Virus record (IMG/VR): IMGVR_UViG_3300044819_000092
Location: 1 to 62,482 of that record
DNA from: a virus
Lineage: Duplodnaviria > Caudoviricetes
DNA length: 62,482 bases
Strand: one strand, 5' to 3'
The position numbers were made by a program, and so were the translations under genes. The notes beneath the pieces are model-generated. The model was not told where the DNA came from and did not search any database. It was given only the letters and a program-made list of their open reading frames with translations. This document shows positions 18,279 to 55,496 of this stretch, piece after piece (within the stretch, counting starts at the first letter, position 1; each line of letters begins with the position of its first letter).

Positions 18279-18791
18279 TCACGTCGCTCCCGTTTGCGCG
18301 TGGCGCCCCGCCGCCGGTCCGGATGGTGTCCGGGGGCCGAGCCCGCTCCGCTGCGCCCAGGCCGCGATGGCGCAAGCATCGGCCTGGTCCTCGGGCAGCG
18401 CGATCCCGAACCGCTCGAGCGCCCACGCGATGCACGCGAGCTTCCGCTCCGGGCCCGGCGTCCGGGTGGTCATGCGGCCGGCCAGGATCACCGGCTGCCA
18501 GGTGGACGCGAGGACCGTCACCGTCGCGAGCCCGCGCCGCTCGAACGCCTGCAGCCACCGGCCGAGCAGCCGAGAGAGGACGAGGCCGGTTGAGTTGTTC
18601 AGCCTGACGAAGACGTCCTCGATCGCGACCACCTCGGGCTTGAACGTCGCGATGGTGTCGGCCGCGCGCTCCACCGCCTGCCAGTCATTCACCTCGCAGA
18701 GCCCGCGCCGGAGGATGCGCGCGCCGCAGATGACCGCGATGCCGGTCCGCTCGGCGCTGTCGACCCCGACGATGACGGCCGTGTCGTTCAC
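18279..18791 (-). CDS. RuvC-like (RNase H fold) resolvase/nuclease
   Basis: IVGVDSA, VVAIED and DQADACAIA catalytic motifs. Confidence 0.85.
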   Translation of the reverse strand: MNDTAVIVGVDSAERTGIAVICGARILRRGLCEVNDWQAVERAADTIATFKPEVVAIEDVFVRLNNSTGLVLSRLLGRWLQAFERRGLATVTVLASTWQPVILAGRMTTRTPGPERKLACIAWALERFGIALPEDQADACAIAAWAQRSGLGPRTPSGPAAGRHAQTGAT

Positions 18792-19522
18792 GTAGAAAAT
18801 TCCTCGCCTCGCCTCGCCAGGCCCCGCCGTACCCCGCCTCGCCTTGCAACACCCGGCCACACCAAGCCCAGCCTCGCATCGCCACGCGGCGCCACTCCAG
18901 ACCCCGAACCTCGAAAACCGTTTGAGAAGAAGACCCTGCCTTGCCAGGCCACGCCTCGCCTCGCCTCGCCCCGACCAGCCTCGCCGTGCCTCGAACCTCG
19001 AAAAGCCGTTGAGAAGAAACCTCGCCGCTCCAAGCCCGGCCTAGCCGGGCCACGCAACGCCCGGCCGTGCCCTGCCTCGCCATGCCCTGCCGGGAGCCTC
19101 GAGAACCGTTGAGAGAGAACCCTCGCCCCGCCCCGCCGAGCCGTGCCGAGCCATGCCTTGCCACGCCGCGCCAGGCCCCGCCGTTCCTTGCACCGCCATG
19201 CCCCGAGCCTCGAAAAGTCGTTGAGAAGAAAACCCGTGCCTCGCACCGCCAAGCCTCGCACCGCCGCGCCACACCTTGCCTCGCAAGGCCAAGCCATGCC
19301 GCGCCGGGCCTCGCACCGCCGCGTTCCTCGAGAACCGTTGAGAAGAAAAGCCTCGCCTGGCCTGGCCCTGCCGCGCACCGCCCCGCCCTGCCAAGCCGGG
19401 CCGGGCCAAGAGCCTCGAAAAGCCGTTGAAGAAAAGCCGCGCCTCGCGCTGCCTTGCCTTGCAGTGCCATGCAGTGCCCGGCCGTGCCCTGCCTCGCCTT
19501 GCCGGGCCGCGCCCCGCCCTCG
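18791..19522 (-). ncRNA. Array of seven GGY-NN pentamer tracts separated by six conserved 26-28 bp linkers; putative guide-RNA array
   Basis: Plus-strand GCCNN tracts (pentamer count): 18801-18905 (21), 18933-18992 (12), 19019-19093 (15), 19120-19204 (17), 19233-19322 (18), 19350-19409 (12), 19436-19520 (17). Linker about GAGCCTCGAAAAGCCGTTGAGAAGAAAA. The repeat is seen directly; the RNA function is inferred. Confidence 0.8.
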
Positions 19523-19539
19523 CCATGTGCCCGCCGCGA

Positions 19540-20178
19540 TCATACCTGCGCCGAGGTCGCCTTTCCGTTCGTCCGGGTCGCCCGCGGTGGGATCACGACT
19601 CGGTCGCTGACGATGACCCACCCCACGACGTCGGCGGTCCCGAACGGGCCGCCCTTCTCGGGCCGGAAGTCCCCGAGGCCCTGTTGCTGGACCCCCTCGC
19701 CGAGCAACATCCGGATGGTCGCCTCGTCGAGGATGTTGTCGTTGATGCGCAGGTACACCTTCGTGCTCCAGGCGTTCAGGCGAGCGCGGTAGCGCATGAT
19801 GCGGCCCTTGGTCGCCGGGATGGTGACCGGCCGAGCGTCGATCTCGAACTCCGACGCCCGGGTCAACCTGTCGGTGAGGAAGAGCGGCGCCAGCTCGTCG
19901 GTGACGATCATCGCGGCCGGCACGATGTACTTCAACGTTTTTCTCGAGCCGCGCTGCTTGTGCGCTCCACCCGCCTCGCGGATGAGCCGCGCGAACGCCG
20001 AGCCGGGCAGGCACAGACCGCCCTCGTCGTCCCGGTAGACGGACGCCTCGCACAACGTCCGAGGATCCTCCGTCGCGATGTGCACCCGCCTCGTCTTCTT
20101 TTCGATCTCCCCGCTGCCGGAAAACCGGTGCAACAGGATCGGACTCGTCCCCTCTACCCATGCTTCGACTGTGATCAT
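19540..20178 (-). CDS. Stand-alone Cas7/RAMP-like protein (212 aa)
   Basis: N-terminal strand VEGTSPILLH, LCLPGSAFARLIREA helix, C-terminal Gly-rich loop GLGDFRPEKGGPFG; GGAG RBS; flanked on both sides by pentamer tracts. Confidence 0.75.
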   Translation of the reverse strand: MITVEAWVEGTSPILLHRFSGSGEIEKKTRRVHIATEDPRTLCEASVYRDDEGGLCLPGSAFARLIREAGGAHKQRGSRKTLKYIVPAAMIVTDELAPLFLTDRLTRASEFEIDARPVTIPATKGRIMRYRARLNAWSTKVYLRINDNILDEATIRMLLGEGVQQQGLGDFRPEKGGPFGTADVVGWVIVSDRVVIPPRATRTNGKATSAQV

Positions 20179-20235
20179 CTCGTTTCTCCGTTCTTTTTCA
20201 GGTTGTCTCGCGGCCCGCGCCAATGCCGCTCTCGT

Positions 20236-20390
20236 CTTCGATGGCGCGATGGGAAGTCCCAAGCCTCGCCTCGCCCGGACAAGCCCTGCCATGCCCGGCC
20301 CCTCCTCGCCGTGCCCTGCCCCGCCACGCCTTGCCGTGCCGTTCCCTGCCGTGCCTAGCCTGGCCGCGCCCGGCCGTGCCACGTTCCTCG
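20236..20390 (-). ncRNA. Single GGY-NN tract (24 pentamers) upstream of the RAMP-like gene
   Basis: 20263-20382 GCCNN x24, bounded by GTTCCTCG (as in the linker at 19323) and a degenerate linker CTTCGATGGCGCGATGGGAAG. Confidence 0.75.
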
Positions 20391-20391
20391 T

Positions 20392-20890: not shown

Positions 20891-21997
20891 CTACCGCTGG
20901 TTCAGGTGCTCGAAACTGATGCGCTCGGGCTCGCTCTCGCGACCGCGGCTCCTGGCCACGTTGTGCTTGCATTGCGGGCAGCCGGCGACTGGCCCCGCCC
21001 TCGGGAGCTTCTTGTGGCTCTCGCCGTTCTTGTGCAACTCGCAGTACGCCGAGCCCATGGGCTTGCGCCGCTCGGCCGAGAGCGCCTGGAAGTCCCTGAC
21101 GAAGAACGCGAACGGGTGCTTGGCCTTGAGCCTGCCGGGTGAGGTGTCGTCGAGGTACTCGGCGATGATCGGGCCGGCCCGGCTCTGCACCTCGAGGCGA
21201 GCGATCTCGGGCAGCCCGAGCAGGTACTGGGCCAGATCTGCCTCGTGCCGAGCGGTCCCGCCGGTGTACGTCGCCTGCCCGTACTTCGCGCACCACCCCT
21301 CCGCGAACCTCGCCAACCACCGCGAGGACGGCCACAGGAACTCCGGCTTCGTCGAGCCGAAGGCGCCAAGCGGCGGCGCTGCTGCCACCACGTCCGGCTC
21401 CGGCTCCGGAGCCCTAGGCGTAGCCTGAGATCGCGCGCGCTCCGGATCCGGATCTTCACGCTCTTGATCAAGTTCTCTCTTCGGATCCGGATCTTGCCTG
21501 GACTGGCCTTGACTTGACTTGACTGGTCTTGGGGGGCGGACGATGGGCGGACAAGGGGCGGACATCTCGGCGGACCTGGGGGCGGACAATGGGGCGGACG
21601 TCTCGAGGAGCGACGCCCCGTCCGTCACCTGTCCTCGCTGGCGGATCTTCTGGTCGCGCCACCGCTGGCGCAGGTGGTCCGCGCGCTCGGTCATCCGGAC
21701 GATGGCCCCGCCGGTGTGCTCGGCCCAGTTGTGGATCTCGGCCGGCCGCCCGTCGGCTTCGTCGATGAACCCCGCCGCGACCAGCGCCGCGTAAAGGGCC
21801 CCGTCGAGCGGGCGGTACTGGCAGGCGATCTCGATGTCGTAAGGCTCCATCCCGCCGAGGTTGCCGTCGGGGCACGAGCGGCAGGCCCAGCTCCAAAGCC
21901 GCACCACGTACCACGCTGCCTCGGGGTTCTTCAGCGCCGCGCAGAACCGCAGCGTCTTGCGGTGGCTCGGGAAGCCCTCGTCGATTTCGAGGTACAT
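20891..21997 (-). CDS. Phage replication initiator (replisome organizer)
   Basis: N-terminal SHRK...LWSWA...DG...LVAAGFI...IHNWAEH domain; central low-complexity linker with iterons. Confidence 0.75.
   Translation of the reverse strand: MYLEIDEGFPSHRKTLRFCAALKNPEAAWYVVRLWSWACRSCPDGNLGGMEPYDIEIACQYRPLDGALYAALVAAGFIDEADGRPAEIHNWAEHTGGAIVRMTERADHLRQRWRDQKIRQRGQVTDGASLLETSAPLSAPRSAEMSAPCPPIVRPPRPVKSSQGQSRQDPDPKRELDQEREDPDPERARSQATPRAPEPEPDVVAAAPPLGAFGSTKPEFLWPSSRWLARFAEGWCAKYGQATYTGGTARHEADLAQYLLGLPEIARLEVQSRAGPIIAEYLDDTSPGRLKAKHPFAFFVRDFQALSAERRKPMGSAYCELHKNGESHKKLPRAGPVAGCPQCKHNVARSRGRESEPERISFEHLNQR
21499..21600. repeat. Putative origin iterons inside the initiator gene
   Basis: GGCGGAC at 21535, 21546, 21557, 21569, 21581 and 21593 (11-12 bp period), next to GACTT/GACTG pentamers. 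Confidence 0.7.
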
Positions 21998-22486: not shown

Positions 22487-22558
22487 CCGTTAGAGAAAAT
22501 CCACGCCACGCCTTGCATCGCCATGCCTCGCCTGGCCGCGCCTTGCCAAGGCACCTCG
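22487..22558 (-). ncRNA. Satellite GGY-NN unit (10 pentamers) with both half-linkers
   Basis: CCGTTAGAGAAAA, then GCCNN x10 (22500-22549), then GGCACCTCG; intergenic. Confidence 0.7.
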
Positions 22559-22562
22559 TCCT

Positions 22563-22757: not shown

Positions 22758-23449
22758 GGGGTGAGCCTCACGAACGAGATGGCCCAGACCATCGGGTTCG
22801 CCGCCCAGGACTTCTGGCCGTCCTCGCCATGGATGAAGGCCCACAGGCCCGCGAAGGCCTCGATGGCAGGCTGCCCGCGCGCGGGCGCTATCCCCTCGGC
22901 GAGCGCGTCCTCTTCGGTGATGTCCTGGAGGCGCTCGAGGCGGGTCTCGGTGATCCCGAGGACGATCCGCGCGTGCGCCCGGGGCATGTGGAGCTGCGAT
23001 CGAATTCGACCGGCCCACGCCGGCCTCGGGCCTTCGGCGAGGTAGTGAATCTTCACCCCGGCCGGGATGTCGCGCGCGGCGAGAGTCGGCAGCCCGGCTG
23101 CCGGATCGGCGTCGTAGCCGCGGCCTGCGCACCAACCCTCCTTGACCCAGAGCTTGAAGCCGGGGACGCCGTACGGGCACACCACCTCGGTGCCGACCAT
23201 TCGGCCGTGCGTGGCGATTCTCCTCGTCTGCGTCTTCCGCCCGTCGAGGATGGCCCGCACCATCTCGGCCATGAAGAGGATCGGCCGCTCGAGACCACGG
23301 CCGTTCGCCTCGGAGTCCGAGAGACGGTCGACACGTCTCCCCGAGGCTGGGGCGCCTGCCCCCTCTCCCTTACGCGGATCCTCGGCGCGGGGGATAACTT
23401 CGTCCCCCGGCACCTCGCCGCTCGGATTTGGAAGACCTGGCGCGCTCAC
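22754..23449 (-). CDS. ASCH/PUA-like conserved phage protein
   Basis: RPILF..EMVRAILDGRKTQTRR...HMPR...ERLQDITEEDALAEG...NPMVW; start uncertain. Confidence 0.8.
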   Translation of the reverse strand: MSAPGLPNPSGEVPGDEVIPRAEDPRKGEGAGAPASGRRVDRLSDSEANGRGLERPILFMAEMVRAILDGRKTQTRRIATHGRMVGTEVVCPYGVPGFKLWVKEGWCAGRGYDADPAAGLPTLAARDIPAGVKIHYLAEGPRPAWAGRIRSQLHMPRAHARIVLGITETRLERLQDITEEDALAEGIAPARGQPAIEAFAGLWAFIHGEDGQKSWAANPMVWAISFVRLTP

Positions 23450-51593: not shown

Positions 51594-55037
<3,444 letters not shown>

Positions 55038-55040
55038 GGA

Positions 55041-55496
55041 TCACCAGGTGACCACGATCTTGAGCGAGCAGTCGTTCGGGAAGGACATTTGCTTTCCGTT
55101 CGCGAGGGTGGCCTTGACTCGAGCGTCGTACCGACCGGACGAGTAGCCGGTCCAATCGAATTCGATCTTCCCGTCGGTGGCAGGGGTGAGGATGGTGCAG
55201 GCGGCGGTGACCGGGGCGAGCGACACGTCCTCGCGCCGGATCGCGAAGGTGACGGTGGCGCCGGTCAGATCGACGGGCGCTCCGTCCGGCCCGAGCAAGG
55301 TCATCTTGAGGACGGGCGCGGTGTCTTGCTCGCCGAGGTAGATGGTCCGCGCGCGCCCGCTGCCCATGACCGTCGTGCCGTCGTTGGCGAAGAGCGCCTC
55401 GGTGCCCATGCGGTTGCCGGTCAGTCTGGTCGGGCCTGGCGACGAGACGAGCGCGCGGGTGCGCGTGCCCTCGATGCGAGATCTGAGACCGACCAT
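55041..55496 (-). CDS. Stand-alone BppU-like domain protein
   Basis: Near-identical to the N-terminus of the downstream fibre gene. Confidence 0.75.
   Translation of the reverse strand: MVGLRSRIEGTRTRALVSSPGPTRLTGNRMGTEALFANDGTTVMGSGRARTIYLGEQDTAPVLKMTLLGPDGAPVDLTGATVTFAIRREDVSLAPVTAACTILTPATDGKIEFDWTGYSSGRYDARVKATLANGKQMSFPNDCSLKIVVTW

Follow-up and report, generated by a model that had tools for sequence, protein, structure and literature searches.

A guide in a divergent, high-GC VIPR locus of a temperate phage partly resembles the Walker A motif of DnaB-family helicases

Introduction

The viral record IMGVR_UViG_3300044819_000092 (Duplodnaviria; Caudoviricetes), analysed over its full 62,482 bp and referred to here as the window, contains at positions 19120-19204 a tract of GGC-NN pentamers which is very probably the guide part of a vrRNA (named T4) in a VIPR (Viral Interference Programmable Repeat) locus. 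The system is already known, and the present locus is a divergent, high-GC new member of it. The protein encoded beside the tracts has a RAMP fold and aligns with the Vipr protein of Escherichia phage SUSP1 with the GGY-binding residues kept, and the locus is therefore assigned to VIPR. Read as the first two positions of codons, the dinucleotides of T4 resemble over part of their length the Walker A motif of DnaB-family helicases. Judging from this resemblance only, the most likely target of the guide would be a gene for a helicase or another P-loop protein in a rival element, an assignment that is plausible but tentative.

VIPR has been presented as a CRISPR-like gene silencer in three bioRxiv preprints of 2026 (10.64898/2026.04.26.720920, 10.64898/2026.04.26.720927, 10.64898/2026.10.15.759431). 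As described there, a Vipr RAMP protein of ~20 kDa is combined with vrRNAs in which 9-16 YNNGG repeats lead into an invariable tail, and the NN dinucleotides pair with double-stranded DNA while skipping one base in three, mostly the codon wobble; the natural targets given are competing phages and satellites (10.64898/2026.04.26.720920). VrRNAs aimed at decoy sites of the host have also been reported (10.64898/2026.10.15.759431).

The Vipr protein and its linkage to pentamer tracts

The vipr gene lies on the minus strand at 19540..20187 including its stop codon (19543-20187 coding), and encodes a single-RRM RAMP protein of 215 aa and ~23 kDa. Its G+C content at third codon positions (GC3) is 0.85. 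It is flanked by an array of seven pentamer tracts and by a further tract at 20263-20380. No Pfam family was found for the protein, which matches phrog_4652 (function unknown) at 5.9e-17 and has 574 homologues at E ≤ 1e-3, all of them unnamed or 'hypothetical' and none with a Pfam family. An AlphaFold2 model made from 39 homologues (pLDDT 83.3, pTM 0.78) was compared with the PDB by Foldseek, where Csm3 chains ranked top (E 4.6e-7, probability 1.00) and 34/34 of the matches listed were CRISPR effector complexes or a Csm3 structure. The Foldseek-independent comparison by VIA gave Z up to 12.2 to Cmr/Csm3 chains, with a root-mean-square deviation of 3.3-3.5 over 157-163 residues, and its first 27 rows were all CRISPR RAMP proteins.

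In a comparison with SUSP1 Vipr (agp039), hhalign aligned the 39-sequence profile at 96.1% probability (E 2.9e-9) over 170 columns. Residues H17, R138 and D177-W178-R179 of SUSP1, which are reported to hold GGY (10.64898/2026.04.26.720927), align with H20, R134 and D173-F174-R175 here, and R134, D173 and R175 are invariant among the 39 homologues. A glycine-rich segment, GLGDFRPEKGGPFG, has 10 invariant positions in the same set. In the isolate-phage collection the sole match of the window's Vipr is a gene of Pseudomonas phage vB_Pae_LESphi2 (OQ594955, 4918-5475), annotated as hypothetical (26% identity, E 1e-7).

Nine tracts of GGC+NN pentamers (T1 to T9) occur in the window, all on the same strand, with GCC on the plus strand and GGC-NN read on the minus strand. 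They hold 147 NN dinucleotides in total, in 10-26 units each, and are distributed over three gaps between genes. Searching for seven GCC spaced at period 5 gave 13 matches forward, and 0 both in reverse and in the backwards control. Seven of the tracts form the array at 18806-19518, separated by six conserved elements of ~25 nt (range 22-30 nt), and two lie outside it at 20263-20380 and 22505-22547. A CGAGG motif followed by three bases precedes every tract, and each separator therefore seems to consist of a vrRNA's tail and, after it, the leader of its successor.

The same association of gene and tract is found across related loci. Among 80 viral loci with a Vipr homologue, 75 have a same-strand GGY-NN tract ≤150 nt from the gene (median gap 26 nt) and 77 have one anywhere in the fetched flanks, whereas a tract on the opposite strand occurs in only 2/80. 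Linkage is likewise seen in 10/15 loci from metagenome-assembled genomes (MAGs).

The T4 guide and its codon-phased reading

The T4 unit spans 19106..19212 on the minus strand. Alignment of the separators divides it into a 5' CGAGG+CTC leader, the guide at 19123..19204 (the NN-GCC run of the plus strand being 19125-19202) and a 3' tail, GGG-TTCTCTCTCAACGG. From 19204 to 19123 on the minus strand the guide is a succession of in-phase GGC+NN pentamers, with two degenerate units (TGC, GGA), and its 17 NN form the series GG AT GG AA AC GG CT GC GT AA AT TC AC TC GG GG GA. Tract and series are exactly those listed in an earlier, sequence-only reading of this DNA. The codon-phased code which that reading proposed proves to be the published VIPR rule (10.64898/2026.04.26.720920), and the Vipr protein that this rule requires is encoded at the locus. 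Under this rule it is therefore legitimate to read the NN as codon positions 1-2, and T4 then gives G[IM]G[KN]TGLAV[KN][IM]STSGG[DE]. The absence of stops from this and other tracts, such as T3, had also been remarked on; it is uninformative, because the third base is free and no dinucleotide forces a stop.

The composition of the NN accords with guides that follow coding sequence, and a preference of the scaffold could give the same bias. Fitted to the codon-position-1-2 composition of the phage's own genes, the 147 NN score -3.86 bits per NN in the sense orientation, compared with -4.0 for a uniform composition, -4.14 for antisense positions 1-2 and -4.4 to -5.0 for the phases containing the wobble. 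In 4,375 dinucleotides of 325 tracts from other loci (L010-L145) the first N of the pair is purine-rich (A 0.35, G 0.33, C 0.13, T 0.19) and the second is flat, which could be a signature of codon position 1 or a constraint of the scaffold. When 150 guides were tested for the skip rule on 1.38 Mb, skip 1 showed no excess, in a database too small to be informative.

Resemblance of T4 to the DnaB Walker A motif

The sequence-only reading had seen in T4 a P-loop of the DnaB type, with the proviso that such motifs might often arise from shuffled tracts. For the bare pattern this is partly so, since GxGK[ST] in either orientation appears in 4.4% of 20,000 within-guide shuffles and in 2.3% of pooled nine-guide shuffles, and GK[ST] in 27-32% of shuffles. 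The comparison with DnaB itself gives a different picture. A profile was made from codon positions 1-2 of the Walker A segment (conserved as RPxMGKTxxAxNI) in 30 DnaB genes, taken from 41 genomes drawn independently of the tract, and the null consisted of 5,660 windows from 647 tracts of other loci and the other eight guides, in both orientations. T4 NN1-12 scored 16.6 bits against a null maximum of 6.7 bits, and the fraction of 100,000 T4 shuffles reaching 16.6 bits was 1e-5. Eight of the pairs (NN2-5, 7, 8, 10 and 11) take residues that are conserved in the 30 genes, contributing +2.7 to +3.9 bits each. What stands of the Walker A claim is thus a DnaB resemblance over NN2-11; GxGK[ST] alone is weak, and NN12-17 are unlike DnaB.

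The phage has no DnaB of its own, as had been stated: DnaB_C is absent in six frames at E ≤ 0.01, in a search whose control was positive in 14/14 known genomes. The Walker A of the phage's own AAA gene matches T4 at only 7/17 dinucleotides and 18/34 bases, also in line with the earlier reading. A possible Walker B motif in T3 was rejected by eye against this AAA gene, in which the spacing differs. None of the nine guides has a match of at least 80% in the window, where their best matches of 50-71% all fall within the range of shuffled guides. When the guides of 314 other tracts were compared with the window, 18 reached at least 0.8 compared with 10 shuffled ones, all of them short. The guides of the locus are unique with respect to the 647 tracts from other loci (best ungapped match 0.70).

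Searches for targets of the guides

Guides were compared without gaps, identity being counted at the informative positions and set against a null of shuffled guides, as in the preprint on solo vrRNAs (10.64898/2026.10.15.759431), and the published threshold for a target is an 80% NN match. The big collections were scanned by exact seeds only, and with three of the nine guides, T3, T4 and T5. For T4 the collections were viral contigs and metagenome contigs. With exact seeds, three guides and part of the collections as its scope, an absence of targets is therefore weak evidence.

In the viral contigs, the T4 seed NN1-9 gave 2 matches (best 23/34, one of them IstB-like), NN5-13 gave 0, NN9-17 gave 4, all in one AT-rich phage structural gene at 21/34, and NN3-10 gave 22, with a best of 25/34 and DnaB in 1/22. 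The seed NN2-10 in the metagenome contigs gave 27 matches, DnaB in 2/27. The best of these reached 28/34 (82%) and lies in a stop-filled frame of a 1.07-kb metagenome contig of 46% GC; it is seed-ascertained, and ~0.05 such matches would be expected by chance among 27 (binomial estimate). The best DnaB genes (loci L328/L188 and L177) match T4 at 25/34 bases (74%) with NN2-11 exact, again seed-ascertained, and Pfam confirms that these are true DnaB helicases (DnaB_C, E about 4e-81). The remainder of the 22 viral and 27 metagenome matches were unrelated or in non-coding frames. No P-loop gene in these scans matches T4 at the published threshold, 25/34 bases being the best. A protein search restricted to the region around the DnaB Walker A yielded only 3 candidates.

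The seeds of the two other guides gave no target either, T3 with 34 matches (best 25/36) and T5 with 4 (best 20/30). In cellular genomes, NN1-15 of T4 at ≤3 mismatches was found in 0/401, 0/401 and 0/251 genomes of three phyla regarded as candidates for the host (1,053 genomes in total), namely those of three Vipr-bearing MAGs. The full T4 pattern occurred in 0/5 of the Vipr-bearing MAGs.

Proposed mechanism and alternative explanations

By analogy with the published systems, the minus strand would be transcribed, probably together with genes of the replication module, and the transcript would be cut into units composed of the CGAGG leader, (GGC-NN)n and the U/C-rich tail. One Vipr protomer would cover each pentamer with the GGY buried and the NN exposed, and the NN of the resulting filament would pair with double-stranded DNA, skipping every third base and silencing transcription there. 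As the skipped base would usually be the wobble, a guide could track a protein motif whatever the synonymous codons. The T4 reading G-M/I-G-K-T-G-L-A-V-N-I fits the Walker A helix of DnaB-family helicases, and its non-matching 3' third might either be tolerated or be specific to one unsampled rival. It is possible, if doubtful, that T4 is in this sense a motif-directed guide on the invariant DnaB Walker A, with which a helicase-less temperate phage would silence a replication gene in a whole class of rivals within its host (phages, satellites or plasmids) and not in a single rival only.

A number of results weigh against this interpretation of the locus and of its guide. Expression and processing of the vrRNAs and their binding by Vipr in this phage are what we infer from the known systems. 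RNAfold gives only weak, inconsistent hairpins for the tails (-2.9 to -9.5 kcal/mol), and T7 (21 units) and T8 (26 units) exceed the published 9-16. No accessory (vap) gene is evident next to vipr: when 11 neighbouring open reading frames (ORFs) were compared with 95 related loci (tblastn E ≤ 1e-5), none was conserved beside vipr, save one hit for one ORF. For the guide, no natural target of T3, T4 or T5 was found in the exact-seed scans or the genome scans. The DnaB fit figures overstate the significance, because the family was picked after the motif had been seen. None of the 30 DnaB genes has NN12-15 or NN17 at the corresponding positions (-2.2 bits each), NN16 is almost never seen there (-0.7), and the full-length T4 (17 NN) scores only 6.9 bits. 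Walker A is not enriched in the 325 tracts of other loci (1 observed, 0.3 expected). In the phage record with the best DnaB gene (64,872 bp, 51% G+C) the other eight guides match at shuffle level, and the other guides of the locus have no match to DnaB loci beyond shuffles.

Alternatively, T4 is a genuine vrRNA whose Walker A reading is coincidental and whose real target is some unsampled sequence, an explanation to which we give an even chance. The P-loop look would then come from G-, A- and T-rich dinucleotides and a reader familiar with the motif. Such a coincidence is favoured by the frequency of GxGK[ST] (2.3-4.4%) and GK[ST] among shuffles, by the dissimilarity of NN12-17, by the seed-ascertained 74% NN match of the best P-loop genes, by the scarcity of DnaB among the viral and metagenome seed matches and by the lack of Walker A enrichment elsewhere. 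It does not readily account for the eight pairs within NN2-11 that take residues conserved in independently chosen DnaB genes, nor for the 5,660 windows from other guides that reach at most 6.7 bits compared with 16.6. A partial coincidence with an unsampled target is about as likely as a DnaB target, or more so. As to whose gene T4 might be aimed at, the sequence-only reading had named a competitor or the host; a competitor's helicase is plausible, and host targeting is unsupported. A guide on the host's own dnaB, for replication shutdown or as a decoy site, would suit a phage without DnaB and agrees with the fair match of cellular DnaB genes to NN2-11 and with the host decoy-site vrRNAs described in one preprint (10.64898/2026.10.15.759431). 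However, the best of the 30 cellular DnaB genes matches at 22/34 bases, none of the 1,053 genomes from the three candidate phyla carries NN1-15 at ≤3 mismatches, and a helicase-less phage would presumably need the helicase of its host, which together make this improbable.

The tracts might also act as DNA or by their structure, as iterons, centromere-like arrays for protein binding, two-tetrad G-quadruplex runs or sites of a TRAP-like ring protein. They do lie in the replication module beside the replication-initiator gene and present GG every 5 nt on one strand, and their guide-RNA role here is assigned by analogy. However, the tight, strand-specific linkage to the RAMP gene recurs in 75/80 phage contexts that are otherwise unrelated and have no further gene in common, the RAMP protein has a homologue reported to bind such RNA (10.64898/2026.04.26.720927), and the initiator gene has separate iteron-like repeats at 21493-21599; we regard a role of this kind as very unlikely. 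Hardly credible at all is that the tract is protein-coding. Predicted ORFs on the minus strand (e.g. 18788-20161) do span the array and a similar tract is annotated as a coding sequence (CDS) in a mycobacteriophage record, but with a period of 5 nt the invariant GGC falls on each of the three codon positions by turns, the ORFs stay open for no other reason than that a stop cannot arise from the repeat unit, and the true gene, which is in a different frame, ends at 19540. Sigma-54 promoter spacing, Rho-utilisation sites, G-quadruplex runs, centromere or iteron arrays and a TRAP-like triplet+2 RNA ligand had been considered for the tracts and were dropped in view of the RAMP gene and the VIPR preprints.

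Comparison with known systems

The closest described counterpart is the type II VIPR of SUSP1. Both have a small single-RRM RAMP protein with aligned GGY-contact residues and GGY+NN pentamer vrRNAs on the strand of the gene, one upstream and an array downstream (in the SUSP1 GenBank record agp039 has GGT-NN tracts on both sides), and neither shows self-targeting. However, the proteins share only ~26% identity over the aligned columns and are not connected by tblastn at E ≤ 1e-5. The scaffold is GGT in SUSP1 and almost always GGC here, the ~40-nt pseudoknot tail reported there contrasts with a ~15-nt U/C-rich tail without predicted fold, and vap1 (agp038) is adjacent there whereas no conserved accessory gene was seen here. 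The nine guides of 10-26 units over three intergenic gaps also set the present locus apart. T9, a lone vrRNA away from vipr with the leader and tail of the locus, resembles the solo vrRNAs described for SUSP1-family phages and satellites (10.64898/2026.10.15.759431), with the difference that it shares its genome with vipr, two genes off, and is not in a vipr-less element.

With the Cas7 family of class 1 CRISPR systems (Csm3, Cmr4), Vipr would share the same fold, as judged from the model, and the reported arrangement of one protomer per guide repeat with a thumb that flips bases out at fixed intervals (10.64898/2026.04.26.720927). In contrast to class 1 CRISPR, there are no CRISPR repeats and no other cas genes in the 52 ORFs scanned (Pfam and/or PHROGs), the VIPR guide is non-contiguous, with 2 paired bases per 5 of RNA compared with 2 per 3 of DNA, and the guides are hard-wired in the phage rather than acquired as spacers. 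A class 1 CRISPR-Cas array was considered and rejected: the separators have 22-30 nt, but the 'spacers' are pentamer-periodic and no cas family was found in these 52 ORFs.

Among mycobacteriophages, Florinda and Quico (Cheoctovirus) have a VIPR-like locus, with high-GC GGC-NN tracts of 69% DNA identity to 19350-19518. The tracts adjoin a 199-aa gene (gp60) which aligns with the Vipr profile at 96.5% probability (E 9.2e-10) and has a GVGDWRP loop. They differ in being joined head to tail by short CAG-type junctions instead of tail-plus-leader separators, and the record lists the tract as a CDS (gp59). In Florinda (L009, NC_028889) these features lie at 1396-1741 and 688-1284, and gp58 is unrelated.

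Implications

Descriptions of VIPR date from 2026 and deal with coliphage and Pseudomonas prophage systems only. To these the present locus adds an environmental example that is complete and high in GC and belongs to a distant clade of Vipr, whose >570 homologues are 'hypothetical' or unnamed; it has nine guides, a short tail that appears unstructured and no accessory gene in evidence. The locus also makes a testable prediction, namely that one guide mirrors the ATP-binding motif of a helicase. If this is true, the aim of a VIPR guide can be a protein motif instead of one particular allele, which bears on how escape-proof silencing is and on how guides are chosen. Pentamer tracts called as CDS in phage records, such as Florinda gp59, should be recognised as vrRNA arrays, and Florinda and Quico offer a possible laboratory model of high-GC VIPR in M. 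smegmatis.

The other vrRNAs of the locus

All the other vrRNAs are, like T4, on the minus strand. The downstream array begins with T1 (unit 19423..19527, tract 19436-19518), which has 16 NN and a tail, and continues with T2 (unit 19335..19417, tract 19350-19407; 12 NN, with leader and tail) and T3 (unit 19218..19330, tract 19238-19320; 18 NN), the second example given in the sequence-only reading. Beyond T4 follow T5 (unit 19006..19101, tract 19024-19091; 15 NN), T6 (unit 18918..19000, tract 18938-18990; 12 NN) and, as the last of the array, T7 (unit 18794..18913, tract 18806-18893; 21 NN), which abuts the GTG start (18791) of a RuvC-like gene. This downstream gene could be a nuclease-type vap or simply the resolvase of the phage. 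T8 (unit 20250..20391, tract 20263-20380; 26 NN) lies upstream of vipr, with its CGAGG leader placed after the stop codon of a 161-aa ORF and a tail unlike that of the other tracts, and is possibly two guides. The solo T9 (unit 22489..22559, tract 22505-22547; 10 NN), two genes upstream of vipr, has the same CGAGG leader and a TTTTCTCTAACGG tail. A block of ~23 nt, made of four consecutive NN with their scaffold, is common to T5 (19059-19091) and T1 (19476-19508), which suggests that guides arise by duplicating parts of other guides.

A conserved tail, GGN-TTTTCTTCTCAACGG-like, U/C-rich and ~15 nt long, follows 7/9 tracts. Rfam gave no relevant match, and a scan for sigma-70 promoters and terminators gave nothing above shuffles. 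Tails differ among related VIPR arrays: those of L199 (5560-6260) are ~40 nt long with a hairpin whose stem varies by compensatory changes, and those of L148 (4560-4900) and L150 (2455-3030) are short and U-rich, like the tails of this window.

The phage genome

The window is a complete viral record with direct terminal repeats and 68.6% G+C, and almost all of its genes are on the minus strand. As these include genes for an integrase, a tail sheath, a terminase and a major head protein, it is taken to be a temperate tailed phage. The terminases most similar to its own are 36-43% identical and belong to phages with many different hosts, and no tRNA genes were found. A weak hint as to the host may be the stretch of 52 nt at 22893-22944, inside a phrog_874 ORF, which shares 86.5% identity with gene p14 of Myxococcus phage Mx8. 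The single public run that contains the phage region is DNA labelled as a peat metagenome, which may be the source sample; there was no RNA run among the public runs containing the region.

Repeats of other kinds occur elsewhere in the window. Within the replication-initiator gene, 21493-21599 holds a period-5/10/20 repeat of CTTGA type and 5.8 copies of a 12-mer (GGGGGCGGACAA); these have the appearance of origin iterons and differ from the vrRNA tracts. At 53575-54461 a long stretch of 9-nt periodicity reads as collagen-like Gly-X-Y on the minus strand, presumably within a tail-fibre-like gene, and at 54729-55342 a 318-bp unit is present in 1.9 copies of 90% identity.

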